Of a stretch of DNA of 64,000 nt, positions 1 to 34,220 are shown piece after piece. The first letter of the stretch is position 1. Each line of letters begins with the position of its first letter. A program made the position numbers and the translations under genes. The notes under the pieces are model-generated. The model saw only the letters and a list, made by a program, of their open reading frames with translations. It was not told the origin of the DNA and searched no databases. The stretch is from an uncultured Candidatus Saccharibacteria bacterium (GTDB lineage Bacteria; Patescibacteriota; Minisyncoccia; Phycocordibacterales; UBA918): contig CAYGLK010000001.1 in the NCBI GenBank assembly GCA_964350985.1, forward strand, positions 91,018-155,017, written 5' to 3'.

Positions 1-325
1 TTAGGTTCTGATAGCCAGCAAAAGTTCTCGCTAGTAAAACTACTCGAGCCCTCGGCTTGTCTATCTGTGCATCTTTATCATGTCTGGTTCGTGGAGCTAA
101 GTGAGCATCAATTCCGAGAATCGGTTTAATACCTTCTTTGGTACAGGCTTTATAAAAATCTATTAGTCCGTATAGAGCACCGTTGTCTGTGAGTGCCAAC
201 GAAGTCTGACCATCAGCTTTAGCGGCGTAAGCCAGCTCTTTTGGGGTTGGTAGGGCATTTAATAGGGAATAGTGAGAATGGGTATGCAGGTGAACAAAAG
301 TGTTTTTTGGAGTAGTTTCGGACAT
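1..325 (-). CDS. dnaE: DNA polymerase III alpha subunit, N-terminal PHP-domain portion (partial; gene continues beyond window start)
   Basis: Reverse-strand translation MSETTPKNTFVHLHTHSHYSLLNALPTPKELAYAAKADGQTSLALTDNGALYGLIDFYKACTKEGIKPILGIDAHLAP matches the PHP domain start of DnaE (HxHxxYSxLDG motif). Confidence 0.7.
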   Translation of the reverse strand, partial: MSETTPKNTFVHLHTHSHYSLLNALPTPKELAYAAKADGQTSLALTDNGALYGLIDFYKACTKEGIKPILGIDAHLAPRTRHDKDAQIDKPRARVVLLARTFAGYQNL

Positions 326-448
326 GTTGAGGCTAGTATACCACTCACCGCGACCTCTCGCCAAAAGTCTTTTTGTCAGTTTGATTTATACGTTTTTCAA
401 TGCTTTAATCTCCTGGGATAAGTATCAAGCTGGAATCTAATAAGGGGA

Positions 449-868
449 ATGACCTTGGACATCTTTTCTTTCGTGGTTGATAATTATTTTGGATTTATCA
501 CCTCATGGTGGTGGGTCAGTATTTGGGTAGTTTCTTTTGTCTCATTTACTGCGATTCTACTCCGAGATTCTTACCTTAGCTTTACAAAGTGGGAAGCGGC
601 GACATTTTCTCTTATTGCCTTGGTCAGTATCGTTCCATTTCTTGAAAATATTACCCACGGCGCATCAAGGACTGAGTTTTTTAGTAGGTGGAATTACATT
701 GCTGTAGAGTCGCATGGTTACCATTCTCGCTTTAGTTCCTTCAAATTTTTTGTGTTCTGTGTCTTATTGACCACTTACTGGTTCGCCCCTATATGGCTCA
801 TCCAGATCTGGATTTCACGCATTTACTTGATCCTGAAAATTAAATGGGAGATGCGTAATTGGAAATAA
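449..868 (+). CDS. hypothetical Trp-rich membrane protein
   Basis: 139-aa ORF with several hydrophobic segments. No recognisable domain. Confidence 0.3.
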   Translation: MTLDIFSFVVDNYFGFITSWWWVSIWVVSFVSFTAILLRDSYLSFTKWEAATFSLIALVSIVPFLENITHGASRTEFFSRWNYIAVESHGYHSRFSSFKFFVFCVLLTTYWFAPIWLIQIWISRIYLILKIKWEMRNWK

Positions 869-932
869 AAGCCCTGCATTGAAGCCAGCCTTCATGTGGG
901 GTTTCTTTGTAGTAATTTGTTATACTTGGCCA

Positions 933-1298
933 ATGGAAAAAATAAGATCATACGCCTTTGATTTTGACGGGGTTATTGCTAAATATGATGGCTTCAAGGG
1001 AGTAGGTCATTTTGGTGAGCCAAACGAATCTGTTGTTGCAGCTATTCGACAGTTAAGTCAGGCTGGACACAAGATAATTCTGCATTCTACTCGAGGTGAA
1101 GAAGCTTTACGAAAGTATTGTTTGGAAAATGATATTCCTATTGATTACTTTAATCATAATCCCGACCTAGAAGGTGAAAATCCAGGAAAGCCGATAGCTT
1201 TTGTATATGTAGACGATCGGGCTATTTGCTATCGTGGTCAAACGACTAAAGAGTTGGTGAAAGAAATCACTGAGTTCAAAGCTTATTGGCAAAAATAA
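933..1298 (+). CDS. HAD-superfamily hydrolase (small)
   Basis: Motif I FDFDGVI near the N-terminus. Start chosen at the internal Met MEKIRSYAFDFDGVIA. Confidence 0.55.
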   Translation: MEKIRSYAFDFDGVIAKYDGFKGVGHFGEPNESVVAAIRQLSQAGHKIILHSTRGEEALRKYCLENDIPIDYFNHNPDLEGENPGKPIAFVYVDDRAICYRGQTTKELVKEITEFKAYWQK

Positions 1299-1338
1299 GG
1301 TCTAACTTTTTCCTTTCGGATGTAGTTAAAAACAATGG

Positions 1339-1692
1339 ATGCACCCGCCTAAGGAGAGCGTTGTGAAAGAAGACATCATTAAAGCTGATGGTATTCGTTT
1401 TTCTGTTTCAGACGACGGCAAAGAAGTTGGTCGAGCCTATCTTTATCCCTTAAAAAATGATCTACATTCACGTCCTTTCGGACTACTTGAAGATGTTTAC
1501 GTGGATGAGAAATATAGAGGCAAGGGGGTAGCAAGTCAGCTTTTGGAAGCCGTAACGCAAAAGGCCAAGGCTTTGAATTGCTATAAGCTGATAGCTACAA
1601 GTCGCAATGACGGCACTCGACAAGCAGTCCATGACTGGTACTTGAGATTAGGTTTTGCGGATTATGGAACCGAGTTTCGAATCAATTTCTAA
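1339..1692 (+). CDS. GNAT family N-acetyltransferase
   Basis: Acetyl-CoA binding motif A, VDEKYRGKGVASQLLEAV, followed by the typical C-terminal Y-containing segment. Confidence 0.6.
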   Translation: MHPPKESVVKEDIIKADGIRFSVSDDGKEVGRAYLYPLKNDLHSRPFGLLEDVYVDEKYRGKGVASQLLEAVTQKAKALNCYKLIATSRNDGTRQAVHDWYLRLGFADYGTEFRINF

Positions 1693-1750
1693 GCACATGA
1701 GCGCCAGGCAACTGGTGCTCCTTTGGTATTAAGTCACTACTTATTTTTTA

Positions 1751-2392
1751 ATGTATACTCACTTTGTGAAAAAAGCCGAATACACTATTGGTATCGATGA
1801 AGCAGGTCGGGGTCCTTTGGCTGGGCCGGTGGCTGTCGGCGTTGCTTTGGTGAAGAGTAATTTTTCCTGGACTAAGGAACTACCTGGAGTTAATGATAGT
1901 AAAAAATTATCAGCGTCTAAGCGAGATGATATTTTTCTTAAAGCCAAGCAGTTAAAAAAGAAAGGTTTGCTTGATTATCAAGTAGTACTAATGTCAGCTC
2001 AAATTATTGATCGTATTGGAATTGTGCCAGCCATTACTAAAGCGATGCATCAGGGTTTGAAAAAAATAATGCAACGCTCTGGTCTAAAAGAATATCAGGT
2101 GTTTGTAAAGCTAGATGGGGGGCTAAGGGCACCGGCTACATATATAAGTCAAGAAACTATTATAAAAGGAGATGCTAAAGAGAAAGTTATCGGACTGGCG
2201 TCAATTATGGCCAAGGTAACTCGGGATCAATACATGGAGAAGTTGGCTGTGAAGAAAGAGTTTGTTGTCTATGATTTTGCAAAACATAAAGGTTACGGCA
2301 CCAAGATCCATAGGGAATCCATTGCCGGAAATGGGCTTTCTTTGGAACATAGGGTTAGTTTCTGCCGGAATATAAAGCTTAAGGCTAATTAG
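1751..2392 (+). CDS. rnhB: ribonuclease HII
   Basis: IGIDEAGRGPLAGPV active-site motif at the N-terminus. Length 213 aa. Confidence 0.85.
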   Translation: MYTHFVKKAEYTIGIDEAGRGPLAGPVAVGVALVKSNFSWTKELPGVNDSKKLSASKRDDIFLKAKQLKKKGLLDYQVVLMSAQIIDRIGIVPAITKAMHQGLKKIMQRSGLKEYQVFVKLDGGLRAPATYISQETIIKGDAKEKVIGLASIMAKVTRDQYMEKLAVKKEFVVYDFAKHKGYGTKIHRESIAGNGLSLEHRVSFCRNIKLKAN

Positions 2393-2518
2393 TTCAGTTT
2401 GTTGCCTGAACTAGCTTAAATTAGCTGATTGTGTAGTATTTACATATAAGTGAGTCTTTTGACTCCAGGGGGACTAAATAGTTGCTTTTTTACAAGGATT
2501 TGTTATAGTTTCGCCACT

Positions 2519-2800
2519 ATGGTAATTCGAATGCGGCACACGCGGTCTCACACCGCTAATAGACGTTCTCATCATGCTTTAACAGCGCCTAATATGGCTG
2601 TGTGTAAGAATTGTGAAGGACACTATCGTCAACATCACATGTGTTTAAATTGTGGTTTTTATAAAGGTAGAGTTGTAACTGACCTACTAACGAAAAAGAA
2701 AGAACGAGAAGAACGAATCTCTAAGAAGAAAGAAGCGATTGGTGGGCAAGCAGCTGGTGATGAATCTCCAGTAGCTGAAGTAGAATCAAAGACAAAATAA
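2519..2800 (+). CDS. rpmF: 50S ribosomal protein L32 with a Lys/Glu-rich C-terminal extension
   Basis: MVIRMRHTRSHTANRRSHHALTAP...CKNCEGHYRQHHMCLNCGFYKGRVV matches the L32 zinc-ribbon core. Start is at an internal Met of the ORF-track ORF. A ~35-aa KKKEREERISKKKE tail follows. Confidence 0.75.
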   Translation: MVIRMRHTRSHTANRRSHHALTAPNMAVCKNCEGHYRQHHMCLNCGFYKGRVVTDLLTKKKEREERISKKKEAIGGQAAGDESPVAEVESKTK

Positions 2801-2918
2801 ATATCGATCTAGAAAAGTCACCTGCATGGGGGCTTTTCTTTTTGTGGATTCATGACCTTTGTATCCGAAAGGGCATGGTACACTATTTTCAGGACAGATA
2901 AGTTTTAGTACATTTTTT

Positions 2919-3821
2919 ATGGCAAATAGGCACCTTTCGCGCAGTATAGTTCTTCAAGCACTCTTTGAGTGGGATTTAAATGCAATTGATAAAAAGGAAG
3001 TTATAAATATTTTAGATAGAAATATCGAAGAGTTTGCTCAAAACAAGACGGACCGACCTTTTATGGAGAAGCTCTTAAATGGGATTCTTGGAAAGCAAAC
3101 AGAACTAGATTTAGTAATTACTAAAGCTGCACCTGAGTGGCCTATTGATCGTATCTCTCCAGTTGATCGAAATATTTTAAGACTAGGATTGTTTGAACTC
3201 CTTTTCTCTGAGCGTTCTGAAGTGCCAGCTAAAGTGGCGATAAATGAAGCGATTGAATTAGCTAAGCAATTTGGGGGTGATAACAGTAGTCGTTTTGTAA
3301 ACGGTGTACTCGGCGCTGTCTATAAAGAGATCGGTGAGCCAGGAAAAGCTGAGACAAGCAAGCAGCGTAAAAAAGACGTTCCGTTTGATCAGATGCCAAT
3401 TGAAAGACTTGCCGGTGCTGTGGTCTATGCTGAATCAGGTGGGCAGATGTACTTTGCTTTGGTCCACGATATCTTTGGTCACTGGACTCTGTCTAAGAGT
3501 AAGGTAGCTGAAAACGAGACTGTTGAACAAGGAGCTGTACGAGCTCTTAAGGAAGAGATTGGTTTGCCAGTAGAGATTGAAGCTGAATTAGGTAATAATG
3601 AATATATCGCCACTCAGCCAGAAAAAGGAAAGGTACGAAAGCAAGTACACTATTTCTTAGCTAAAGCCCCGTATCAAGACATTGCTTTGGCAAAGAAAGG
3701 CGGCTTAGATGACGCTCGATGGTTTAGAGTTTCTGATATTTTGAACCTTAATTTCTATGAGGATATTCTACCGATTGTAACCAAGGCTATTACCATGTTG
3801 GTTGGCAGAAGCGGCAAATAG
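2919..3821 (+). CDS. nusB: transcription antitermination factor NusB fused to a C-terminal Nudix hydrolase domain
   Basis: N-terminal ~148 aa (MANRHLSRSIVLQALFEWDL ... FVNGVLGAVYKE) is a complete NusB. The C-terminal ~140 aa carries a Nudix box, ETVEQGAVRALKEEIGL. Start is at an internal Met of the ORF. Confidence 0.75.
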   Translation: MANRHLSRSIVLQALFEWDLNAIDKKEVINILDRNIEEFAQNKTDRPFMEKLLNGILGKQTELDLVITKAAPEWPIDRISPVDRNILRLGLFELLFSERSEVPAKVAINEAIELAKQFGGDNSSRFVNGVLGAVYKEIGEPGKAETSKQRKKDVPFDQMPIERLAGAVVYAESGGQMYFALVHDIFGHWTLSKSKVAENETVEQGAVRALKEEIGLPVEIEAELGNNEYIATQPEKGKVRKQVHYFLAKAPYQDIALAKKGGLDDARWFRVSDILNLNFYEDILPIVTKAITMLVGRSGK

Positions 3822-3853
3822 TGATAATCTCACCAAATAACCCCCAATTATCT

Positions 3854-4570
3854 ATGTCAGAAAGAAATCTTGAAGCGGATTTGTTGTCACTCCAGACCTT
3901 GGTTGGAGTTACTTTTAGTAACCCGAAGATCTTACTTTCAGCGGTAACACACCGATCTTATTTAAATGAACACCGCGAGGCTGACTGGGAGCATAACGAA
4001 AGATTGGAATTCTTGGGAGATGCGGTTTTAGAACTAGCAGTGACGACATTTTTGTTCGATAAATATCCTGATAAGCCAGAAGGAGAGCTAACAGCTATTA
4101 GAGCAGCTTTGGTAAACACAAACTCTCTGGCAGCAGCCTCAGAGCTTCTAGGTATCAATCAGTATCTCTTAATGTCTAAGGGTGAATCAAAAGATGAAGG
4201 GCGAGCACGACAGTATATCTTGGCAAATGTATTTGAGTCTTGTATTGGAGCTATCTATATTGACCAAGGTTACGAAGCTGCAAAGAAGTTTATTGCTGAC
4301 AGACTTTTTGGTAACACAGAAGAGATTGTTGCAAACAAAACCTGGCAAGACGCTAAGAGTCGCTTCCAAGAACTTTCACAAGACAGAGCTTCAATCACTC
4401 CAACATATGAGACCTTATCTCAAGATGGTCCCGACCATGACCGAGTCTTTACAGTAGGAGTATTTTTACGACATGAAAAAGTAGCGGAAGGAAAAGGTCG
4501 TTCGAAACAAGAAGCTGAACAAGAAGCAGCTAAAGCTGGTATCAAAGCTAAAGAGTGGGATCAGGAATAA
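3854..4570 (+). CDS. rnc: ribonuclease III
   Basis: RNase III signature ERLEFLGDAVLEL. C-terminal dsRBD-like region with an AEGKGRSKQEAEQEAA motif. Confidence 0.85.
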   Translation: MSERNLEADLLSLQTLVGVTFSNPKILLSAVTHRSYLNEHREADWEHNERLEFLGDAVLELAVTTFLFDKYPDKPEGELTAIRAALVNTNSLAAASELLGINQYLLMSKGESKDEGRARQYILANVFESCIGAIYIDQGYEAAKKFIADRLFGNTEEIVANKTWQDAKSRFQELSQDRASITPTYETLSQDGPDHDRVFTVGVFLRHEKVAEGKGRSKQEAEQEAAKAGIKAKEWDQE

Positions 4571-4591
4571 TTAAATATATTAAAAGTAAAA

Positions 4592-4618
4592 ATCCCCTTA
4601 AGGGGATTTTTACTTTTT
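4592..4618 (+). terminator. rho-independent terminator after rnc
   Basis: Hairpin AAATCCCCTTAAGGGGATTT followed by a T-tract. Confidence 0.6.
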
Positions 4619-4665
4619 AACCCACTACTTCAAGCTTTTGAGGCAAGTCTGCGTGTTATAATTTT

Positions 4666-5436
4666 TTGATGAATCTCAGCCGTTTAAACAAAACTACTAC
4701 TGGACTTACTTTGATTGAAATCTTGGTAGTGGTTGCGATTGTCGGTATTTTAGCTGCTGTTATTGCGGTAAATGCGATTGAGTCAGGAAAGCTGTCTCGA
4801 GATGCTAAAAGGCAAGCTGATCTTAGATCACTGCAAAGTGCTATTGAGTTGTATAAAAATAAAGAAGGAAGGTATCCTTATGGTTGCAATGCCCCTGAAG
4901 GATCATGGAGTGACGTATGGTCAGGGCAAATAACTAGCGTCGACTACAGATGTACAAATGGAAGTACACAGTATATTAACGGTTTGGCTCCTAAGTACAT
5001 TCCAACACTACCTCAAGATCAAAGGCTAAATGGAAATAATTCTGGTTATGTATACCGTACGAATGCCGCAGGAACTGTTTATAAATTGATGGCAATGAGA
5101 ACCGTGGAGGCAGATTCAGTAGATTATAATCATGAATTTAAGAGCTGTGACATTAGGCCGGATGTTGCTGGAAAATTACAAAATCTTGGGGCTTCGGGTG
5201 TGGATACTTCTGGATGGTGTGCCACAGCAACTGAAGCAGCTCTCGATCCAGCAGGACAAGTGTCAACATATAATCCTATACCAGGGTGTCGAATGAATAG
5301 TGGAATCAATGTAGCGGATAATGGTAATGGACGCTTTGAAATATCTTACGGTGTTTGGGGAGGTTTTGCTGAGGAGATGACTGGTCCACATAGAGCTGCC
5401 GAAGTAAGAGAGACTGCGAGAGTTATTTGTAAATAA
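4666..5436 (+). CDS. type IV pilin / prepilin-type N-terminal cleavage-methylation domain protein
   Basis: N-terminal TGLTLIEILVVVAIVGILAA is a class III signal peptide with the G/LTLIE motif. Cys pairs in the C-terminal globular part. Confidence 0.7.
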   Translation: MMNLSRLNKTTTGLTLIEILVVVAIVGILAAVIAVNAIESGKLSRDAKRQADLRSLQSAIELYKNKEGRYPYGCNAPEGSWSDVWSGQITSVDYRCTNGSTQYINGLAPKYIPTLPQDQRLNGNNSGYVYRTNAAGTVYKLMAMRTVEADSVDYNHEFKSCDIRPDVAGKLQNLGASGVDTSGWCATATEAALDPAGQVSTYNPIPGCRMNSGINVADNGNGRFEISYGVWGGFAEEMTGPHRAAEVRETARVICK

Positions 5437-5441
5437 ACAAT

Positions 5442-5978
5442 ATGAAAATTTTAAATAAAAAACTAAACGGCTTTACCTTGATTGAGATCATGGTAGTGAT
5501 CGGGATCATTGGTATCCTCTCCGCTGTACTTTTTGCTAACTTTAGTGAAGCGCGAATGCAAGCTCGTGATAAAGCACGTATGACAACTTTGAAAGAAATG
5601 CAATTAGCGATTGAATTTTATAAGGCGCAAAATGGCAGTTACCCAGTTGCGGGATGTGGAGCGGTCGGAGATGCTTTCTCTGGACCTGGTCCACGTGTCG
5701 GCTTGCTTACTTCATGTCCCCTTTATATTGAAGGATTAGTTCCGGATTTTATTTCCGTATTACCTAATGATCCTGTCTTTGAACAGGAAGCTGGAAGAGG
5801 ATATTACTATGCGTCTAATGAAACGAGTTATAAATTAATGTCGCTAGATAGTGTAGAAGTTTTAACTGTGTCACTAGGTGATGAGTTTGCTCGCTGTCCT
5901 AGTGCAACCGGTGCTTGTTCTGGCGGAATCCCAACAAACACCTACGCGGTCTATAGTTCTGGAGCAGAAGCTTGGTAA
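5442..5978 (+). CDS. type IV pilin / pseudopilin (paralog of the upstream gene)
   Basis: NGFTLIEIMVVIGIIGILSA prepilin motif. Shares the QARD...AIE.YK..G.YP core with the preceding pilin. Confidence 0.7.
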   Translation: MKILNKKLNGFTLIEIMVVIGIIGILSAVLFANFSEARMQARDKARMTTLKEMQLAIEFYKAQNGSYPVAGCGAVGDAFSGPGPRVGLLTSCPLYIEGLVPDFISVLPNDPVFEQEAGRGYYYASNETSYKLMSLDSVEVLTVSLGDEFARCPSATGACSGGIPTNTYAVYSSGAEAW

Positions 5979-5994
5979 AATAATTTAAATTTAA

Positions 5995-8259
5995 ATGTAT
6001 CTCAAAGACTTAACAATTTCTGGATTTAAATCTTTCGCTAAGAAAGGGGAGTTAGAGTTCTCGGCTCCGATCACGGCTATTGTGGGTCCTAATGGTTCTG
6101 GAAAAAGTAATGTAGCTGAGTCTTTCAGGTTTGTGCTTGGTGAGCAGTCAGTTAAGTCGATGCGTGGTAAACGGGGAGAGGATTTAATTTGGGGCGGGTC
6201 TACACAAGTCTCTAGAGGTAATCGCGCCCATGTTACTGTCACGCTCGACAATAGTAAAAGAGTTTTTCCGCTCGATTTCTCTGAGATTAAGATTGAAAGA
6301 GTAGTAAACCGCGATGGGCAAAACGAATATATTTTAAATGGGTCGGTGGTGCGACTAAAAGACATCCAAGAACTATTAGCTTCAGCTAATATTGGATCAA
6401 CCGGACATCATATTATTTCGCAAGGTGAAGCTGATCGTATTTTGACAGCCAATCCAAAAGAAAGACGAGAGATGATTGAGGATGCTCTTGGTCTCAAGAT
6501 CTATCAATACAAACGACAAGAAGCAGAAAAGAAATTAACTAAGACTGTTGAGAACGTAGCTCAAGTAGAGTCTCTTAGACGTGAGTCAGCCCCGCACTTA
6601 AAGTATCTTGAAAAACAGGTACAGAAGATCGAGAAATCATTAGAACTGCAAGAAAAATTAAAGGGAGTTTATGCAGAGTATTTGAGACGTGAAGATATTT
6701 ATATTAGTAGTCATCATGACAGGCTAGAAGGAGAACTAAGAGAACCAAGAGAGGTATTAAAGAAAACAATTGATGACCTTAGTGAAGCTAAGAAAAAACT
6801 ACAAGAATCAGAATCAGGTAATGATTCAAAGGAGCTTATTCATGCTGAAGAAGAACTTCAAAAAGCGACCCATAGTCGACAGTCAGTCGAACGGGAATAT
6901 AGTAAGTGTGAAGGACAGATTGCTTTGCTAGAACGACGCTTGTCTGATTATGAAAAGCGAAGCAAAACTGAGACTGGTAAAGCGATTGCCTACGAAGATA
7001 TTTCTAGTTTGATCAAAGATATTGAACAGCAAGTTAGTAAAGCAGTACAAAAAGAAGAGGTTTCTTTTTTACAAAGAGCACTAACTGATATTGTCCATAA
7101 ACTAAAAGTCTTTATTGAGCGCTCAACAGTTGTGACTGATACTGGAGTAGAGTTTGATAAGGAAGAATTAGGAAGACTACAAAAAGAGATTGAGCAATTA
7201 AGCAAACAACTAGAAAAAGCCAAGCAAGACGAAGTAGGTGCTCGAAAAGGCTATGACGAGATGGAACAAAAGCGTCTACAAGAAGCCACAGATGGTCGTG
7301 AAGCCGAGCGGGCGGTGTTTAGGCTAGTAAGTGAGCAACGTGAGCTAGAAACTAAAATTGAACGCCTGGAGCGCGAGCTAGCGATACTTGATCGTGACCG
7401 TAATGAGTTCAAACAAGAGCTACAAGAAGCTGTAGCTTTGCTTGGTAGAGCAGCAGCTCAATACTATGACCAAGTAGTAAAGGATGAATCTGGAAAAGAA
7501 TTAACTGAGACAGATATTGTGAACGAGAGTCGTGATATTCAAAGAACTCGACGTCATGAATTGGAAAAATTAAAGATCCGTTTGGAAGAGCTTGGTATTG
7601 GTGCAACGGAAGATATTATAAAAGAATACAATGACGCTAAAGACCGTGACGCATTCTTAGCTCGAGAGATTACTGATCTGGAAAGCTCAATTGAGAAACT
7701 ACGTGAATTGATCGAAGAACTACAAGGAAAACTTGAAGAGCAATTTGTTGAAGGAATCAAAAAAATCTCAAGTGAATTTAATCGCTTCTTCACTTTGATG
7801 TTTGGTGGTGGAGAGGCAGAGTTGGTGACTGTGACTACTAAGTCTCGCGCAGTGACAGAAGATGATCTGATGGAAGAAGGGGATGATGAAGAAAAGAAAA
7901 AAGAAGATGGTATTGAACTAGTGGCTAAGTTGCCAAACAAGCGCGTTAAGGGACTAGAGATGCTTTCTGGAGGAGAGAGAGCTCTGACTTCGATTGCACT
8001 TATTTTTGCAATGTCACAAGTAAACCCTCCGCCATTTATTATCTTGGACGAGACTGATGCTGCTTTGGACGAAGCTAACAGCCGTCGCTATGGAGACATG
8101 ATTGAAGAATTGGCTAAGAAGTCTCAATTAATTTTAATTACTCACAATCGGGAGACTATGAGTCGCGCAGGTATTCTATACGGGGTAACAATGGGGAGTG
8201 ACGGAATTTCTAAATTACTTTCAGTAAAGTTTGATGAGGCGGTGGCGGTGGCTAAATAA
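5995..8259 (+). CDS. smc: chromosome segregation protein SMC, short (754 aa) hinge-less form
   Basis: Canonical SMC N-terminus MYLKDLTISGFKSFA...IVGPNGSGKSN and QGEADRILTANPKERREMIEDALGL. C-terminal signature LSGGERALTSIAL plus Walker B FIILDETDAALD. The middle ~450 aa is continuous predicted coiled coil with no Gly-rich hinge. Position after rnc matches the rnc-smc order seen in Firmicutes. Confidence 0.8.
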   Translation: MYLKDLTISGFKSFAKKGELEFSAPITAIVGPNGSGKSNVAESFRFVLGEQSVKSMRGKRGEDLIWGGSTQVSRGNRAHVTVTLDNSKRVFPLDFSEIKIERVVNRDGQNEYILNGSVVRLKDIQELLASANIGSTGHHIISQGEADRILTANPKERREMIEDALGLKIYQYKRQEAEKKLTKTVENVAQVESLRRESAPHLKYLEKQVQKIEKSLELQEKLKGVYAEYLRREDIYISSHHDRLEGELREPREVLKKTIDDLSEAKKKLQESESGNDSKELIHAEEELQKATHSRQSVEREYSKCEGQIALLERRLSDYEKRSKTETGKAIAYEDISSLIKDIEQQVSKAVQKEEVSFLQRALTDIVHKLKVFIERSTVVTDTGVEFDKEELGRLQKEIEQLSKQLEKAKQDEVGARKGYDEMEQKRLQEATDGREAERAVFRLVSEQRELETKIERLERELAILDRDRNEFKQELQEAVALLGRAAAQYYDQVVKDESGKELTETDIVNESRDIQRTRRHELEKLKIRLEELGIGATEDIIKEYNDAKDRDAFLAREITDLESSIEKLRELIEELQGKLEEQFVEGIKKISSEFNRFFTLMFGGGEAELVTVTTKSRAVTEDDLMEEGDDEEKKKEDGIELVAKLPNKRVKGLEMLSGGERALTSIALIFAMSQVNPPPFIILDETDAALDEANSRRYGDMIEELAKKSQLILITHNRETMSRAGILYGVTMGSDGISKLLSVKFDEAVAVAK

Positions 8260-8426: not shown

Positions 8427-9701
8427 ATGGATTTTGAAAAATTAGGTACAAAAAAAGATGATAGATTTGATAAACCTGAAGCAGAACAGGAGACAGAAAC
8501 ATTTTTGTTTGAAATAGAACAAGATCTCCAAAATTTATCTACTAATAGTGCTGAGATTAGTAGTCTTCTTGAAAAATTACCATCAGATGATGATGGGGTT
8601 ATAGAGATAAAAGAAAGTTTAATTAACATACAGCATCGTATTAGCAGCGTCTTACAGCGGGCCATGTTATTACTTTCTCTTTCAGCTGCTTCTAGTTCGG
8701 CTTATGCGCAAGAAGGGTCATCAGCTGCTCCAGAAAATTCCCGTCCACATGTTGAGCTTGAGTATGACAACCCACAAAGATTGGCGTCAAAGAAGGTTAG
8801 AACATACAAATCTTTTATTGATAAGGAGATAAAAAAATACGAAGAATTAGCAATACCGTTCAAATCTAGGGATGGGGATTATATTGATAACTTAGAAATT
8901 GCACTTGATTCAGAACAAGAACTTAGTGAAGAACAGACAAGTATTGTACAAAGCGCAAGGGCAGCCTGGTATGTTGAACTATTACGTATTGAACGCAAAA
9001 GTATCAGAAAACATGCTAGACAAACACAGCAAGCTTATGAGGAAGCTGATACTGCACGCCAATGGCTTGCCGACCTCATACATTCAGAAGAGTATGAAAA
9101 GCGAGCTCTTGCTGAAGGTTTAAGCGAAGAAGAAATACAAGAAAGGCGTAAACGCAGTAAGCAAGATAGCACCCAATTCTTTGAGAGCTTAGCCAGCGGA
9201 GATAGTTATGGAAAGTATATTTTAAAAGGTAGTTTAGTACACCCTGAAGCATTGCGTGATCAGATTAAACTTTCTCGACAAAAGTTTTTTAATGGATTCG
9301 GTAGGGTAAATAAAATATCAGAAATTCAGGTTCATGAAATGGAACACCGCGTTACTCGTGCTAATGAAGGACTTAGTCAGCGAGCGAAAGACTTATACAC
9401 AGAAGCATTTATTACTAGACCTTATCATGATAAAGAATATGCAAACTATCTCGCGACACTTACTGAATTAGACGCTCGAAAAAAATCTTTTGAGTATCAA
9501 TTTGAAAAATTAACAAATTGGCGTTGTGGTATGCCATTTACTTCGGAACACAAAGAGCAAGCAATAAGACTGTACTATGAAGGAAAGTTCAGTAGTGATG
9601 TCGGAGAGTTTTTTAATGTTATTAAACTTGATTATTTTGAACGAATAATGAATGAACTAGCCGATATAAGTGAGTTGGATGAGAGTGAAAATATTGTTTA
9701 G
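8427..9701 (+). CDS. hypothetical protein; possibly a secreted protein starting at internal Met (8664)
   Basis: 424-aa ORF. Acidic coiled N-terminal 79 aa is followed by an internal signal-peptide-like segment, MLLLSLSAASSSAYAQE. No recognisable domain. Confidence 0.5.
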   Translation: MDFEKLGTKKDDRFDKPEAEQETETFLFEIEQDLQNLSTNSAEISSLLEKLPSDDDGVIEIKESLINIQHRISSVLQRAMLLLSLSAASSSAYAQEGSSAAPENSRPHVELEYDNPQRLASKKVRTYKSFIDKEIKKYEELAIPFKSRDGDYIDNLEIALDSEQELSEEQTSIVQSARAAWYVELLRIERKSIRKHARQTQQAYEEADTARQWLADLIHSEEYEKRALAEGLSEEEIQERRKRSKQDSTQFFESLASGDSYGKYILKGSLVHPEALRDQIKLSRQKFFNGFGRVNKISEIQVHEMEHRVTRANEGLSQRAKDLYTEAFITRPYHDKEYANYLATLTELDARKKSFEYQFEKLTNWRCGMPFTSEHKEQAIRLYYEGKFSSDVGEFFNVIKLDYFERIMNELADISELDESENIV

Positions 9702-9705
9702 CTAA

Positions 9706-9775
9706 TTTTGTTCCAGTGATTTTCTCAAAGAGGGAAAATCACTGGAACAAAATACCGATTTGCAGAAAATCGGTA
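9706..9775 (+). terminator. tandem hairpins (19-bp perfect inverted repeat plus a second hairpin and U-run)
   Basis: TTTTGTTCCAGTGATTTTC-TCAAAGAGG-GAAAATCACTGGAACAAAA, then TACCGATTTGCAGAAAATCGGTA, then TTTCT. Member of the GTTCC...GGAAC hairpin family. Confidence 0.55.
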
Positions 9776-9796
9776 TTTCTGCTATTCTTTAAATAT

Positions 9797-10066
9797 ATGA
9801 ACACAATTAAACTACAGAATCGTGGCACTTTAACTTTACCTAAAAAAATTCGTGAAGTTTTAGGTTTAGCTGATGGCTCAATCCTGCAAGTGTCTTCTGA
9901 CAAAAATAGAATTATTTTGGAAAAAATTACGACAGTTTCCTCAGATGATTCAGAACTACTGGGAGATATTAAACAGTCTTTGGCTGATATTAAGAAAGGT
10001 GATTTTATTGAGTTTAGCTCAATAAATGAATTTAAAAAGAAAGCTAAAGCTTATGGTGAAAATTAG
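9797..10066 (+). CDS. AbrB/MazE-family (SpoVT-AbrB swapped-hairpin) antitoxin
   Basis: MNTIKLQNRGTLTLPKKIREVLGLADGSILQVSSDKNRIILEKI matches the SpoVT_AbrB domain. Stop overlaps the toxin start by 14 nt. The ORF-track start at 9716 is a read-through of the upstream hairpin. Confidence 0.7.
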   Translation: MNTIKLQNRGTLTLPKKIREVLGLADGSILQVSSDKNRIILEKITTVSSDDSELLGDIKQSLADIKKGDFIEFSSINEFKKKAKAYGEN

Positions 10067-10301
10067 GATATCTAAGACAGCTTTAAAACAATATCAAAAT
10101 CTTTCTCCTGAACTAAAGAAAAAAACTGATAAGCAATTTGCCTATCTTTTGTCAGACCATAAACATCCTTCACTGAAAGCAAAAAAGTATCGTACAGAAG
10201 ATGATCTCTGGCAGGCGCGTATTGATCGTAATTGGCGTTTTTATTTCTTCGTTGTGTCACCAAACTATTTGATTGTTTCTATCATAGCTCATCCAAAGTA
10301 A
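10053..10301 (+). CDS. RelE/ParE-superfamily toxin
   Basis: MVKIRISKTALKQYQNL...DLWQARIDRNWRFYFFVVSPNYLIVSIIAHPK matches the RelE/ParE C-terminal pattern (R-x-RiiY ... ghR/HPK). Translationally coupled to the upstream antitoxin. Confidence 0.7.
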   Translation: MVKIRISKTALKQYQNLSPELKKKTDKQFAYLLSDHKHPSLKAKKYRTEDDLWQARIDRNWRFYFFVVSPNYLIVSIIAHPK

Positions 10302-14730: not shown

Positions 14731-14802
14731 CGTTTATTTTGACGATTTGAGTAATTTATAATATAAAGCACTGGTGCAATAAGGCACTACAGGGAGTTGT
14801 CC

Positions 14803-15165
14803 ATGCAAGTTTACTTGTCGCGACGCGTCAGTTCATTTTATTCTGACGTGACCCATATTCCGATTTCGACACTCTTGCGGTGTCTCAGGAACGGGCGGTA
14901 TGTCTTGGCGGAAAAGACAGACTCCGGTCCTGCGGAGATGATTGTCATCATTTGGGACTGCAAGATTCGGCTGCCAATTGTGCTCATCTTGATTGATGAC
15001 CAAAAGGGCAAGTGGAAGGTAACCAGGCTTTTTAAGCTTTTGCCTGGAAAGAAAACCCTTGGTCGTCGCAGAGTACCGGTATCACCTTACTGGGCTGGTC
15101 ACGCAAAGGTGATGAGTAACCGGTCTGCCAAACGCAGAGATCAACGGCCCTGCAGACGGGCCTAA
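14803..15165 (+). CDS. hypothetical Arg-rich small protein with HTH-like N-terminus (paralog 1)
   Basis: Strong RBS AGGGAG 6 nt before ATG. GC-rich. Shares the RY(V/I)(L/V)...I(I/L)(I/M)WDC...P(I/V)(V/I)(L/I)(I/V)L core with the next ORF. Confidence 0.5.
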   Translation: MQVYLSRRVSSFYSDVTHIPISTLLRCLRNGRYVLAEKTDSGPAEMIVIIWDCKIRLPIVLILIDDQKGKWKVTRLFKLLPGKKTLGRRRVPVSPYWAGHAKVMSNRSAKRRDQRPCRRA

Positions 15166-15241
15166 GTTCTTTTTGGTCTAAGTCCAGGTAAATGCGTAGC
15201 GTTTGCCTGGACAAGGGCCTCTAACTAATGGGGGAGCTGAG

Positions 15242-15586
15242 ATGAAAGCTAAATTGAAGCCAGGTCACGCCATTGAACAACTGAGAGCCAGGACTTCTCT
15301 TAGAGCTAAAACAGTAAGAAGGTGGCTTAAGGAAGATCGCTACATTGTGCTTCCCGGTACACGAAGATCTGTGGCAAATATTGGGATACTGATGTGGGAC
15401 TGTTTTGGACACCAACCAGTCATAATAGTTCTTTTGAAATCCATGGATACATATGTGGTTAAGACAGTCATGGTTCCAAGCAAAGGTAGGCGCTGGAACG
15501 GACGTCTGGTGGAAACTGATTGGAATATCAAACAAGTCAAACAACTTTGTACACTAGAATCAGCTGAAAAAACAAGGAAGAGTTGA
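15242..15586 (+). CDS. hypothetical Arg-rich small protein with HTH-like N-terminus (paralog 2)
   Basis: RBS GGGGGAG 5 nt before ATG. LRAKTVRRWLKE is a resolvase/transposase-type HTH-like segment. Paralogous to the preceding ORF. Confidence 0.5.
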   Translation: MKAKLKPGHAIEQLRARTSLRAKTVRRWLKEDRYIVLPGTRRSVANIGILMWDCFGHQPVIIVLLKSMDTYVVKTVMVPSKGRRWNGRLVETDWNIKQVKQLCTLESAEKTRKS

Positions 15587-15587
15587 A

Positions 15588-15640
15588 ACCCCTGAGTAAA
15601 GCAAACGCGTGCGTTTGCTTTACTCAGGGGTTTTTCTTGC
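15588..15640 (+). terminator. strong rho-independent terminator
   Basis: CCCCTGAGTAAAGCAAACGC-GTG-CGTTTGCTTTACTCAGGGG (20-bp stem) followed by TTTTT. Confidence 0.75.
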
Positions 15641-31223: not shown

Positions 31224-34220
31224 ATGACTGATTCTACTAATTTTAAAGCTGCCTTAGCAACACTAAATAAAGCCCAAAAAGAGGCTGTTTTGACTATAGA
31301 AGGGCCGGTCATGGTGATTGCTGGTCCTGGTACTGGAAAGACTCAGATTTTGACTCTCAGAATCGCTAACATCCTCATGGAAACAGATACTGCCCCTGGT
31401 AGTATCTTGGCCCTGACTTTTACAGAGTCTGGTGCCAAGGCTATGCGTGAGCGACTACGTCAGTATATAGGCGCTACTGCTTACCAGGTACCTATTTTTA
31501 CTTTTCATGGTTTTGCGCAAAAGTTGATTTCAGATTATCCAGATGCTTATGAAAGAGTTGTTGGTGGTCGACCAATCAATGACTTAGAAAAAATCACCAA
31601 TATAGAAAATATTATTAATGGTGGGGAAGTAAAGCTCCTTAGACCTTTTGGTAATCCAACTTATTATGTAACTCATATCCTAAGAATTATTGGGCAGTTA
31701 AAACAAGAATACGTAACCCCAGACAACTTCCTAAAGATTATTGAAAGACAAGATCAAGAGCTTTTGGGAATCGAAAAAATTCACCAAAAAGGAGCTCATA
31801 AGGGAAAGGTGAGAGGAGAGTATACTAATAAAGAAAAAAGTATAGCCAAAAATAGAGAGCTGCTTTTTATCTACCGCCAGTATGAGGCTTTACTCGGTGA
31901 GCAAAATTTTTATGATTTTGAAGACATGATTGTTGAGACTATTAATGCTCTTTCAAATAATGAAGGGATGTTAAGGGATCTACAGGAAAATTATCAATAC
32001 ATCTTAGCTGACGAACATCAGGACGTTAATGGTTCTCAAAATAAAATTTTAGAATTATTGTCTTCTTTCCATGAGTCACCAAACATTTTTGTGGTAGGTG
32101 ATGAGAAGCAGGCTATCTATCGCTTTCAAGGAGCGTCTCTAGAAAACTTTTTATATTTTACCGAGCACTATCCAAACACAAAAGTTATTAGTCTTGAAGA
32201 AAATTATCGATCTGGACAACCTATTCTTGATGCAGCACATAGCTTGATGAGAGTTGAGTCAGGACCACTAAAAGAATTACGACTAGAACTCAAGGCTTCA
32301 CTGGTCCCTAAGGCAGAATTAACTAGACACTCTTTTTCTCACCAGGCAGTGGAAGACTTGTGGCTAACTAATGAAGTCAAGAAAAAAATAGACACAGGAG
32401 TATCAGCTAGCGAGATAGCTGTTATTGTTAGAACCAATCGTGAGGTTGAACAGGTAACTACTCTTTTACGTAAGCAAGGCATTGCGGTAATGGCTTCAGC
32501 TGATGGTGATATCTTACAACATCCAATTACTCACGCCGTACAGACTCTGATCCGGGCTGTTGTTACCACTCAAGATCAAACAGCACTCTTTACCGTTTTA
32601 CATGGTGCTTACTGGGGTATTAGTGCTGACGATCTATTTAAAGTTTTGTCAGCTCAGTCTTATGACCATAACCTGTGGCAAATTATTTCTGATCAAAAAT
32701 ATTTGTTGGAGATTGGTGTAGTAGATACTTCTGTGTTTGAAAATATTGTTAGGGTGATCACAGAGGCGAGACAACTAGAAGTTCATGAAGCTCCACATCG
32801 GGTATTAGAATATCTCTTACAAGAGAGTGGATTAATAAAACACCTAGTGAAGTACGATTCGTTTGAAGGTACCAGGGTTGTTCGTAGACTTTATGACGAG
32901 ATTGAATCTTTGGTCTCACGAGAAGGGATAAATACCCTGAAAGCAATCGCTACAGCTTTTGAGTTACGTATCTCATATAATTTACCTCTAAATGCTCCTT
33001 ATATTGTCACTAGTAGTGAATCAGTTCAGGTAATGACAGCCCATAAATCAAAAGGACTCGAATTTGAAGTGGTATTTGTTCCGCATCTAAACGACAATAG
33101 TTGGGGTGGTTCAGGTAAAAAGAAATACTTTGATATTCCTCTAACTAGGCGGCAGATTGAAGAGGAGGATGATTTTATTGAAGACGAGAGAAGATTGTTT
33201 TATGTGGCTATTACTAGAGCAAAAAGTACACTATTTCTCTCTTCTTCAAAAATGAATATTGAAGGCCGTGAATTAACTGAAGCAAGACTCGTTTCTGATA
33301 TTGAACCAGATTTGATTAAAGAAGTTTCCACCAAAGAAATCGAAGATAATTTTGACCCTCTGGCAAATTTAGCCAGAATGGAATCTATGAGTAAGGTAGA
33401 TAACCAACTCTTACTTAAAATTTTAACTGATCGTGGCTTCTCTGCTACTTCATTGAATAATTACTTACGTAGCCCGTGGGATTATTTTTACCGAAATATT
33501 TTACGCATACCTGAAACCCAAGCACCACATATGCAGTTTGGTACTGCTATTCACAACACTTTGGAATATATGACCAAATTCCGAACCCAAAATGGAAAAT
33601 TACCAAAAATATCCGTCTACAAGAAAAAATTAGAACAAGAACTTAGTCGACTACCTCTTAATATCGAAGAATTTTCACGTTTACTAAAAAAAGGCCTAGA
33701 GTCACTAGTGGTCTACACTGAGCATCTAGAAGCTACTTTATCTAAAAGTGCAAAAGAAGAAATGAAAATAAGAGTAGTGCTGGAGACTGGTATTACTGAA
33801 CTACCTGAATTAGTACTTACAGGTAAATTAGATAGGATTGATCTTGATGACAATGGTCAGGCTATAAGAGTGGTTGATTATAAAACAGGGAAGCCAAAGT
33901 CGAGGAATTTCATTGAAGGTAATACTAAAGATGCTGATGGTGGTTACAAAAGACAGTTGGTTTTTTATGCTCTACTTTTATCACTTCATGATGATGAAAG
34001 GTATGTTTGTAGTGAAGGGACGTTGTCTTTTGTAGAGCCTGACGCAAAGGGTCAGATCAAAGAAGAGAGTTTTGCTATTACACAGCGAGAGATAGAGGCA
34101 CTTAAAACAGAGATAATTTCATCAGTGAAAGAAATTATTACCGGGGAATTTCTAAAGTCAGACTGCGATCCTAAAACTTCTGATTATTGTGACTTGGTAG
34201 AGCAATTTAAAAATAAATAG
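31224..34220 (+). CDS. UvrD/AddA-like SF1 helicase fused to C-terminal RecB-family PD-(D/E)xK nuclease
   Basis: Walker A AGPGTGKTQ and motif II LADEHQDVN. C-terminal nuclease motifs GKLDRIDLDDNG...VVDYKTGKP plus three C-terminal Cys (CSEG, DCDP, DYCDL). Confidence 0.8.
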   Translation: MTDSTNFKAALATLNKAQKEAVLTIEGPVMVIAGPGTGKTQILTLRIANILMETDTAPGSILALTFTESGAKAMRERLRQYIGATAYQVPIFTFHGFAQKLISDYPDAYERVVGGRPINDLEKITNIENIINGGEVKLLRPFGNPTYYVTHILRIIGQLKQEYVTPDNFLKIIERQDQELLGIEKIHQKGAHKGKVRGEYTNKEKSIAKNRELLFIYRQYEALLGEQNFYDFEDMIVETINALSNNEGMLRDLQENYQYILADEHQDVNGSQNKILELLSSFHESPNIFVVGDEKQAIYRFQGASLENFLYFTEHYPNTKVISLEENYRSGQPILDAAHSLMRVESGPLKELRLELKASLVPKAELTRHSFSHQAVEDLWLTNEVKKKIDTGVSASEIAVIVRTNREVEQVTTLLRKQGIAVMASADGDILQHPITHAVQTLIRAVVTTQDQTALFTVLHGAYWGISADDLFKVLSAQSYDHNLWQIISDQKYLLEIGVVDTSVFENIVRVITEARQLEVHEAPHRVLEYLLQESGLIKHLVKYDSFEGTRVVRRLYDEIESLVSREGINTLKAIATAFELRISYNLPLNAPYIVTSSESVQVMTAHKSKGLEFEVVFVPHLNDNSWGGSGKKKYFDIPLTRRQIEEEDDFIEDERRLFYVAITRAKSTLFLSSSKMNIEGRELTEARLVSDIEPDLIKEVSTKEIEDNFDPLANLARMESMSKVDNQLLLKILTDRGFSATSLNNYLRSPWDYFYRNILRIPETQAPHMQFGTAIHNTLEYMTKFRTQNGKLPKISVYKKKLEQELSRLPLNIEEFSRLLKKGLESLVVYTEHLEATLSKSAKEEMKIRVVLETGITELPELVLTGKLDRIDLDDNGQAIRVVDYKTGKPKSRNFIEGNTKDADGGYKRQLVFYALLLSLHDDERYVCSEGTLSFVEPDAKGQIKEESFAITQREIEALKTEIISSVKEIITGEFLKSDCDPKTSDYCDLVEQFKNK

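Follow-up and report, generated by a model that had tools for sequence, protein, structure and literature searches.

A short Smc without a hinge domain, conserved in Paceibacteria beside rnc

Textbooks define SMC proteins in part by their hinge, which gives them constitutive dimerisation. It also features in models of how DNA is loaded and loops are extruded, for example through hinge opening and hinge-DNA contacts in swing-and-clamp or scrunching schemes. RecN, as seen in the structures from D. radiodurans, dimerises through the end of its coil. A hinge-less SMC clade from Tara Oceans metagenomes has been assigned to the class Actinomycetes (Environ Microbiome 2025, PMC12153180), and CPR Smc sequences are found among the seeds of that study, without comment there. 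The effect of arm length has been studied with B. subtilis Mini-Smc, of which only certain arm lengths are functional, and the arms of natural SMCs fall into discrete modes of 163, 238, 341, 423 and 515 aa (Burmann et al. 2017, PMC5344682); that survey relied on the hinge to define the arms, and proteins without one would have dropped out of it. In the literature searched, we found no description of a hinge-less SMC for these bacteria, and nothing relevant that connects SMC, the hinge, ScpA or ScpB with CPR, Patescibacteria or Parcubacteria.

The gene described here lies in the window, that is, the whole stretch of 64,000 nucleotides that was analysed, together with these upstream neighbours:

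2859..3821, + strand: nusB-NUDIX fusion gene (Pfam; in the same conserved gene string as rnc)
3821..4570, + strand: rnc, RNase III (Pfam; synteny in related loci L001-L014, L137 and L138)
4666-5436 and 5442-5978, + strand: two type-IV-pilin-like genes between rnc and smc (N_methyl motif)
5995..8259, + strand: smc, hinge-less short form, 754 aa (ORF with ATG start; Pfam SMC_N, without SMC_hinge)

The 754-aa reading frame given by the first-pass annotation was reproduced exactly, and the preceding gene ends 16 nt before it. The canonical SMC head domains claimed there are also confirmed, since the quoted motifs were located (Walker A, GPNGSGKSN, at residues 31-39; the signature motif, LSGGERALTSIAL, at 657-669; Walker B and D-loop, FIILDETDAALD, at 681-692) and, with the Q-loop and the H-loop, they complete the ABC-type head set. 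Pfam SMC_N spans residues 2-739 (E 3e-63), Smc heads in the PDB are matched at E 5e-89, and the head is 42-44% identical to those of Bacillus/Geobacillus Smc. K37, R57, Q143, S658-G660, D685, E686, D688 and H717 are invariant in 141 aligned sequences. The bacterial Smc model TIGR02168 scores 538.4 bits, below its NCBIfam cutoff of 567.35, because the middle of the model has no counterpart in this protein. By the equivalog models it is not a RecN (TIGR00634, 41.4 bits against a cutoff of 407.85), and those for Rad50 are unmet (NF041034, 54 bits against 1000; PRK03918, 49 against 700). Alignments and an AlphaFold2 (AF2) model with a pLDDT of 87.4 give the following layout:

5995..6495, + strand: ATPase head, N-terminal half, residues 1-167 (residue-for-residue alignment with B. 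subtilis Smc 1-210)
6085-6111, + strand: Walker A, in the N-terminal head half
inside 6154-6174, + strand: arginine R57, in the N-terminal head half (invariant in the 141 sequences)
6412-6435, + strand: Q-loop, in the N-terminal head half (Q143 invariant)
6496..6810, + strand: N-strand helix of neck and joint, residues 168-272, single and continuous (AF2 helix 168-272)
6823..7119, + strand: distal arm, N-strand, residues 277-375, with helices 277-322, 333-352 and 356-375 (AF2; two-stranded heptad pattern)
6895..6924, + strand: conserved patch EYSKCEGQIA of the distal arm, residues 301-310 (local entropy minimum)
7120..7143, + strand: loop at the tip, residues 376-383, reversing the coiled coil in the hinge's place (AF2 loop)
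7144..7443, + strand: distal arm, C-strand, residues 384-483, a single 100-residue helix (AF2; heptad pattern)
7444..7605, + strand: joint, C-strand part, residues 484-537, short broken helices (AF2 helices 485-492, 505-509 and 513-533; match to 5XEI)
7606..7803, + strand: neck helix, C-strand, residues 538-603 (AF2 helix 538-603; aligns with B. subtilis Smc from ~976; strongly conserved)
7804..8259, + strand: ATPase head, C-terminal half, residues 604-754 and stop (alignment with Smc heads; invariant catalytic residues)
7963-8001, + strand: signature motif, in the C-terminal head half
8035-8070, + strand: Walker B and D-loop, in the C-terminal head half
8134-8151, + strand: H-loop, in the C-terminal head half (H717 invariant)

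Between the head halves lie residues 168-603, and this count of 436 aa comes close to the ~450 aa of coil without a hinge that had been proposed from the first reading. The AF2 model has only helices and short loops in this stretch, and a second model, of a 45%-identical relative, has the same layout with helices only. In both, the coil folds back as an antiparallel structure with a hairpin end, the RecN/Rad50-like topology that had been anticipated, and a two-stranded heptad pattern is present in both strands of the distal arm. Pfam did not match SMC_hinge (PF06470) at E<=0.01 in this protein or in four distant family members, and a Planctomycetes SMC used as a positive control returned it at E 1e-14. 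A hidden hinge is ruled out by this search and by the two models, neither of which contains, in its centre, the alpha/beta fold that would have refuted the proposal. Matches to a Gly-rich motif were obtained in just 22 of 384 family members. The lack of a CxxC zinc hook noted at first holds too: the scanned central region (residues 201-554) has one cysteine, C305, and no CxxC, and across the family just 6 of the 384 members have a CxxC there, with a mean of 0.7 Cys per central region.

The missing part was mapped by alignment with B. subtilis Smc, using the landmarks of PMC5526789, and corresponds roughly to its residues 380-792, which are the hinge and the hinge-proximal coiled coil. Residues 2-351 match TIGR02168 positions 1-353, residue 526 corresponds to ~976 of B. 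subtilis Smc, and a profile built on the short family matches canonical SMCs along the two arms, skipping the hinge. The joint remains, as the Pyrococcus structure 5XEI, which comprises head, coil and joint, can be aligned with the short protein over 494 of its 517 residues. Its N-strand helix, where column entropy is low across residues 168-272, is continuous like the joint helix alphaN1 of B. subtilis Smc (188-253), and the C-strand part (484-537) maps onto B. subtilis residues 922-1011, which split into four helices (PMC5526789). Beyond the joint there are ~100 residues of distal coiled coil, in which the C-strand helix 384-483 pairs with ~105 helical N-strand residues (254-375) in the AF2 model, ended by a short, poorly conserved loop. 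The remaining arm has ~210 residues and measures ~28 nm, versus ~49 nm in B. subtilis Smc, a shortening of about a third to 40%. Indels in the arm are few across the family (about 273, 323 and 381-386), with only four sites in all.

The tip loop is modelled with a pLDDT of 60-75 in this protein and below 50 in the relative. Low values might be expected of a surface that becomes ordered only in a dimer, and it is conceivable that the coiled-coil tips (~320-400) come together in the manner of RecN or of Rad50 rods without a hook, giving a head-arm-arm-head particle of ~55-60 nm that bridges or rings DNA, with the tip as a minimal replacement hinge. The RecN-like topology of the AF2 models, a head and an antiparallel coil with a hairpin end, would suit this arrangement, and the tip helices 333-375 are well conserved in close relatives (L..RAL.DI.H.LK.F.E). 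Family-wide, however, conservation is lowest at the tip, which bears indels, its hydrophobic residues are spaced as in a two-stranded coil and form no additional face, and CxxC is absent; we consider pairing through the tips unlikely.

The short form is not peculiar to this genome. Down to 40% identity, the 384 family members measure 693-783 aa, with a median of 752. Lengths of ~700-780 aa, bar a few shorter and evidently partial sequences, hold for the 120 best clusters (64-100% identity) and, among clusters made at 50% identity, for the 150 best representatives (40-61% identity), and nearly all of these sequences are collinear with the 754-aa Smc from end to end. The family members belong to Nomura-, Kaiser-, Terry-, Yonath- and Niyogibacteria, and some of the genes lie on contigs of up to 1 Mb and one on a complete genome. 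No long Paceibacteria Smc was seen among the best 150 representatives and 240 listed homologues, all of the short form. Hinge loss is thus lineage-wide among the relatives aligned, as the first-pass annotation had wondered, and, as far as sequence comparison can tell, hinge loss and arm shortening are common to the whole class Paceibacteria/Parcubacteria. Truncation by assembly error, which would have undone that annotation, is excluded, since hundreds of separate assemblies give the same length. Apart from the unusual length, nothing suggests that smc is misassembled or decaying here. For that reading practically no room is left by equal length and collinearity across these assemblies, the complete genome and the long contigs included, or by the invariance of the catalytic residues.

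The gene order rpmF-nusB/NUDIX-rnc-smc is kept from close relatives to members of 40% identity, including the complete genome. The rnc-smc context claimed at first holds in that rnc is upstream in the same orientation, although it is separated from smc here by the two pilin-like genes; this clade-specific pair is kept in the close-relative loci L001-L014 and absent from the related locus L137, and in a distant relative rnc directly adjoins smc. The same adjacency occurs in a metagenome locus with an SMC of canonical length (L024), and in one family member smc has a ParB gene at a distance of 1.2 kb. Because the order is conserved, the short gene looks like the housekeeping smc, which supports the earlier designation as the housekeeping condensin gene; a second SMC-family gene in the genome is not formally excluded. 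The short gene could, on that account, be an extra paralogue or a defence-type SMC-like ATPase, with a canonical smc elsewhere. We find this very improbable, given that the representatives and listed homologues include no long form from Paceibacteria, that the short gene holds the ancestral rnc-smc position, that its head is far nearer to Firmicute Smc heads than to JetC, MukB or LmuB, and that defence-gene neighbours are absent. A dedicated partner gene beside smc was also considered and rejected, the downstream ORF (8427-9701) and a toxin-antitoxin-like pair not being conserved in relatives.

The usual partners of Smc were not found nearby. CPR-specific HMMs, whose positive controls worked, detected no scpA or scpB in 353 kb around smc from 18 Paceibacteria sequences (the window and 17 related loci), approximate B. 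subtilis ScpA and ScpB query sequences had no match in the window or loci, and ~9 kb more at the right end of the window gained neither gene. A metagenome scan with the motif FEGPLDLLL retrieved 120 ScpA loci, and HMMs built from them had no match in the Paceibacteria DNA. Tetranucleotide similarity could not separate the CPR loci among these, a Ureaplasma control scoring equally high; three chosen by their neighbour genes (L065, L085 and L133) are from CPR, namely Buchananbacteria and Doudnabacteria, not Paceibacteria, and none of their contigs has the length of a short-SMC contig. ScpA and ScpB exist in CPR lineages other than Paceibacteria, and the ybaK-scpA-scpB cluster that comes after aspS in Buchananbacteria/Doudnabacteria is missing from that place in a Niyogibacteria genome. 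Meheust et al. 2019 report an SMC family (median 755 aa), ScpA and ScpB in 1016, 1010 and 1006 CPR genomes, respectively (PMC6744442 Supplementary Data 1); these counts are not per genome, and are compatible with co-occurrence of SMC and ScpAB.

Two further readings involve no kleisin. A minimal Paceibacteria SMC may work without hinge and without ScpAB, as a homodimer formed through ATP-engaged heads and lateral joint and arm contacts that still organises or segregates the chromosome; we hold this only as a doubtful possibility, which, if true, would make covalent ring closure at the hinge, and perhaps the kleisin too, dispensable for core SMC function. Less probable still is a shift of function to a kleisin-less RecN-/Rad50-like ATPase for DNA repair or tethering, without any role in chromosome organisation, which would make up for RecN being almost absent from CPR. 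The absence of scpAB near smc and the RecN-like shape of the AF2 models are in line with it, as is the presence of the RecN family in only 6 CPR versus 847 non-CPR genomes (PMC6744442 Supplementary Data 1).

The reading we favour, and consider probable, is that the gene is the orthologous housekeeping smc of Paceibacteria (Parcubacteria/OD1), which lost its hinge and outer arm by an ancient in-frame deletion and whose Smc function is retained by inference. The data establish the architecture, its lineage-wide conservation, the intact ATPase and DNA-stimulation residues, the nearly indel-free arm and the rnc-smc synteny. The deletion would have taken the hinge together with the adjoining third of each arm, and the short Smc is inferred, without biochemistry, to be still ATP-driven and DNA-clamping. 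In the absence of a multimer model, we suppose that ATP-dependent head engagement brings two subunits together and that lateral joint-joint and arm-arm contacts, used by canonical Smc rods too, hold them side by side. An engineered hinge-less B. subtilis Smc is reportedly non-functional (work attributed to Hirano and Hirano, 2002), and therefore lateral contacts alone might be too weak. A candidate contact is the 301-310 patch, with an entropy of 2.0 versus 3.0-3.5 in the flanking, otherwise variable distal arm, and with G307 invariant among close relatives. It sits where one canonical arm-arm contact lies, coinciding with the axial contact stretch of B. subtilis Smc, whose cross-linking is placed "around position 300 (266-331)"; crystals of the middle coiled-coil fragment of B. 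subtilis Smc show it packed side by side (PMC5526789). The role of the patch is inferred, and it could have another purpose. If the genome encodes ScpA, this kleisin may contribute by bridging neck and cap. Without a hinge, any closure of the arm compartment would be non-covalent, if there is closure at all, and DNA would be held atop the engaged heads and in the head-kleisin compartment, which may suffice to organise a genome of 0.5-1 Mb.

The region lost is usually regarded as indispensable, and how a hinge-less Smc pairs and holds DNA is a testable question. A large bacterial class has dropped the hinge and the outer arm, with head, neck and joint still tightly constrained, and so offers a natural minimal construct for asking which activities (DNA clamping, ParB-dependent loading, translocation, entrapment) need a closed compartment or a given arm length. 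The question also bears on how very small cells organise their equally reduced genomes of 0.5-1 Mb. The compact ~85-kDa protein suits structural work, and in vivo tests are conceivable because the class now has a cultured member, Minisyncoccus archaeiphilus (PMC12281837).

Compared with known systems, the protein shares with canonical Smc-ScpAB (TIGR02168; B. subtilis, Geobacillus and Pyrococcus structures 5XG3, 5H68 and 5XEI) the head, the ATPase motifs, R57, the neck, the joint, the first ~200 residues of each arm strand and the genomic place beside rnc. Missing from it are the hinge (PF06470) and, in each strand, ~130 residues of the coil next to the hinge, and its length is 754 aa versus ~1,180 aa in the canonical bacterial form. 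MukB, MksB and JetC are likewise SMC-class ATPases, and theirs is a mode of work with kleisins. Mini-Smc has shortened arms as well but keeps its hinge, and the ~210-residue arm described here matches none of the natural modes (PMC5344682). RecN has a similar ABC head and short antiparallel coiled coil with no globular hinge, and Rad50/SbcC a similar head and fold-back coiled coil, in that case with an apical CxxC zinc hook that the short Smc lacks. The marine clade (PMC12153180), presented as an unexplained natural variant, resembles it in joining SMC heads by a coiled coil with neither hinge nor CxxC, and differs in being marine and assigned to the Actinomycetes.

The gene on which this analysis centres, its protein being our query, is the following:

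5995-8259, + strand: smc, ATG start, 754 aa, separated from the preceding gene by a 16-nt spacer

The Pfam family SMC_N covers residues 2-739 of the query (E 3e-63), and the three motifs quoted in the first-pass annotation are present at residues 31-39, 657-669, and 681-692. By far the best NCBIfam family is TIGR02168 (bacterial Smc), with a score of 538 bits, slightly below the cutoff of 567, and with residues 2-351 matching model positions 1-353 in the N-terminal stretch; the RecN and Rad50 models reach only 41-54 bits against cutoffs of 408-1000. Pfam SMC_hinge was not detected in the query or in four distant members of its short family, the Paceibacteria/Parcubacteria relatives, and was detected in a Planctomycetes SMC used as a positive control (E 1e-14).

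In the AlphaFold2 model of the query, computed from an alignment of 141 sequences (mean pLDDT 87.4), only helices and no other fold are predicted between the two halves of the head, which, together with the Pfam search and its control, bears out the annotation's claim that there is no hinge domain. The predicted layout is as follows:

Residues 168-272, 277-322, 333-352, and 356-375: outgoing helices
Residues 376-383: tip loop
Residues 384-483: return helix
Within residues 485-533: short helices of the C-strand
Residues 538-603: final helix of the C-strand

An identical layout, with a pLDDT below 50 at the tip, is seen in the model of a 45%-identical protein from a complete Niyogibacteria genome, so that a central hinge-like fold, which would have refuted the claim, is predicted in neither protein. 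Because the part of the N-strand beyond the joint has ~105 helical residues against 100 in the return helix, and because a two-stranded heptad pattern of conserved hydrophobic positions continues to residue ~375, the simplest reading of the models is that the arm would be a plain antiparallel hairpin, as expected from the annotation's proposal of a coil folding back on itself. The breaks that interrupt the C-strand (484-537) are equivalent to the Smc joint, which in B. subtilis comprises a continuous N-helix (188-253) and a C-part (922-1011) of four helices (PMC5526789). The distal 100 residues of the query are the counterpart of CC2, the middle segment of B. subtilis Smc (246-379/793-929), so that the hinge and the coil next to it, approximately B. 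subtilis 380-792, are absent from the query; when the short-family profile is compared with canonical SMCs, both arms align and the hinge stays unmatched. The lack of a CxxC zinc hook stated in the annotation was also confirmed, as the central region of the query has a single Cys and CxxC occurs there in only 6 of 384 short-family members.

The best 120 clusters (64-100% identity) contain proteins of 747-765 aa, except for one partial protein of 699 aa, on contigs of up to 1.09 Mb. When 1.84 billion cluster representatives were searched exhaustively, the best 150 matches (40-61% identity) proved to have about 700-780 aa, not counting a small number of shorter sequences that are evidently partial, and almost all of the 150 align to the query in one collinear stretch. 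The most distant of the 150 was used as the seed of another search; the matches listed are all proteins of 712-780 aa, none with a hinge annotation. The lengths of 384 short-family members range from 693 to 783 aa (median 752), and one member is carried by the complete genome CP066691.1. The same length and collinearity in hundreds of relatives, the long contigs, and this complete genome rule out an assembly artefact or truncation, the other outcome that would have refuted the annotation. The named sources are Nomurabacteria, Kaiserbacteria, Terrybacteria, Yonathbacteria, Niyogibacteria, Paceibacterota, and the “Parcubacteria group”; the hinge loss is lineage-wide.

The gene order around smc is rnhB - rpmF - nusB/NUDIX - rnc - two pilin-like genes - smc - variable stretch - rnr - rpsP - KH - trmD - rpoB, and includes the following features:

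2859-3821, + strand: nusB-NUDIX fusion (NUDIX hydrolase domain C-terminal), adjoining rnc in close and distant Paceibacteria (L137, L138)
4666-5436 and 5442-5978, + strand: two type-IV-pilin-like genes with an N-terminal methylation motif, spacers 5-96 nt
8427-10301, + strand: variable island between smc and rnr, none of its genes conserved in 14 related loci

The full string from rnhB to rpoB is kept in 14 related genome loci, and members at only 40-45% identity still keep its core, rpmF - nusB/NUDIX - rnc - smc. The pilin-like pair is conserved in the window's clade and absent in Niyogibacteria, where smc directly adjoins rnc. Since this neighbourhood is conserved and rnc also adjoins smc on a metagenome contig with a canonical-length SMC, our results support the short smc as an orthologue of the housekeeping smc, the role already assigned to it from its rnc-smc context. 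The island contains a 424-aa ORF without a Pfam match, a MazE/AbrB-type antitoxin (9716-10066), and, overlapping the latter, a 91-aa ORF without a Pfam match that may be its toxin partner. The ORF at 8427-9701 and the antitoxin-like gene after it were rejected as Smc partners because neither is conserved. One short-family member has a ParB gene 1.2 kb downstream of its smc.

The trmD-rpoB spacer, ~500 bp shorter in relatives, holds two small basic paralogous ORFs (14797-15165 and 15203-15586), which share 27% identity over 48 aa (E 9e-7) and have no Pfam match; they are followed by a 48-nt near-perfect palindrome (~15586-15633). Neither tRNA genes nor Rfam families at gathering score were found in the whole 64 kb (1-64000). 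Just past the right end, an overlapping Logan contig (L142, 1023-8261) encodes a 2,412-aa ORF with no Pfam match. Other large genes of the window are:

31224-34220, + strand: UvrD-type helicase-PD-(D/E)XK nuclease fusion, AddA/PcrA-like, 998 aa
22831-24846 and 41203-43113, + strand: two large, probably secreted proteins, one matching metallopeptidases (HExxH) weakly, the other a repetitive, Gly/Asp-rich protein with a peptidoglycan-binding domain at its C-terminus

ScpA and ScpB are not encoded in the window, and none was found within 10 kb of smc in 17 related loci (353 kb in all, with the window) using HMMs built from CPR ScpA/ScpB, whose positive controls score 1e-58 to 1e-114. The seeds were three CPR-like loci chosen from metagenomes scanned for the ScpA N-terminal motif, with relatives named Buchananbacteria, Doudnabacteria, and Patescibacteria. 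Buchananbacteria-like and Doudnabacteria-like CPR have an aspS/asnS - ybaK-like (tRNA_edit) - scpA ... scpB cluster (L140 7130-11731; L141 5737-17131; L065); in the Niyogibacteria genome aspS is followed by mraZ instead, a weak hint, not proof, that the ybaK-like - scpA ... scpB cluster is absent there. In a non-Paceibacteria locus (L024, Ga0209270_1000040, 286-5299), scpA lies divergently beside rnc-smc, and the SMC is canonical-length (>1,140 aa).

Meheust et al. (2019, PMC6744442 Supplementary Data 1) report one SMC family (K03529, median 755 aa) in 1016 CPR and 813 non-CPR genomes, ScpA in 1010 and 746, and ScpB in 1006 and 777, respectively. These are totals, not counts per genome; given the near-equal CPR counts and a median typical of the short form, they are compatible with co-occurrence of short Smc and ScpAB in CPR. 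RecN is reported there in only 6 CPR against 847 non-CPR genomes, so a shift of the short Smc to a RecN-like repair role is conceivable; the Smc-specific neck and joint, as well as the synteny, are retained, which speaks against such a shift.

The 141 aligned sequences have an average column identity of 42%, with the Walker A lysine, R57, Q143, the signature SGG, D685/E686, D688, and H717 invariant. Column entropy is low in the head, neck, and joint, which are under strong constraint on a shortened arm ending in a loop. The sequence of the distal arm (231-520) varies, yet indels are nearly absent, being confined to near 273, 323, 381-386, and 491-510; this fits the functional tuning of arm length and register described for Smc (PMC5344682). 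The single conserved island of this arm is 301-310 (EYSKCEGQIA), and the tip is the least conserved part of the protein.

No description of a hinge-less Smc of CPR/Patescibacteria/Parcubacteria was found in the literature searched. The arm-length survey of Burmann et al. would miss such proteins because it used the hinge to define arms (PMC5344682). Databases have long contained the short form, annotated merely as “chromosome segregation protein” or “AAA family ATPase”, and its median length is visible in a published table, apparently without comment there (PMC6744442). One study assigned a “hinge-less SMC” clade, marine and abundant, to Actinomycetes and called it a new kind of biology (PMC12153180).

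The observation of a hinge-less short Smc is robust; its mechanism is unresolved and directly testable. We infer that ATP-driven head engagement would pair two subunits, with DNA clamped on the heads, and that the joints and arms may associate laterally, perhaps with the aid of a kleisin, in place of the constitutive link that a hinge normally gives. The main rival, a RecN-like dimer joined tip to tip, is disfavoured because at the tip the protein is poorly conserved and carries indels, and the heptad pattern is two-stranded. As for lateral association, the two arms of B. subtilis Smc run alongside each other; their N-helices make an axial contact “around position 300 (266-331)”, the joints form an additional interface with each other, and the middle segment on its own crystallises in side-by-side packing (PMC5526789). 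Query and B. subtilis residue numbers run in parallel as far as about residue 350, so that the conserved island of the query's distal arm coincides with this axial contact.
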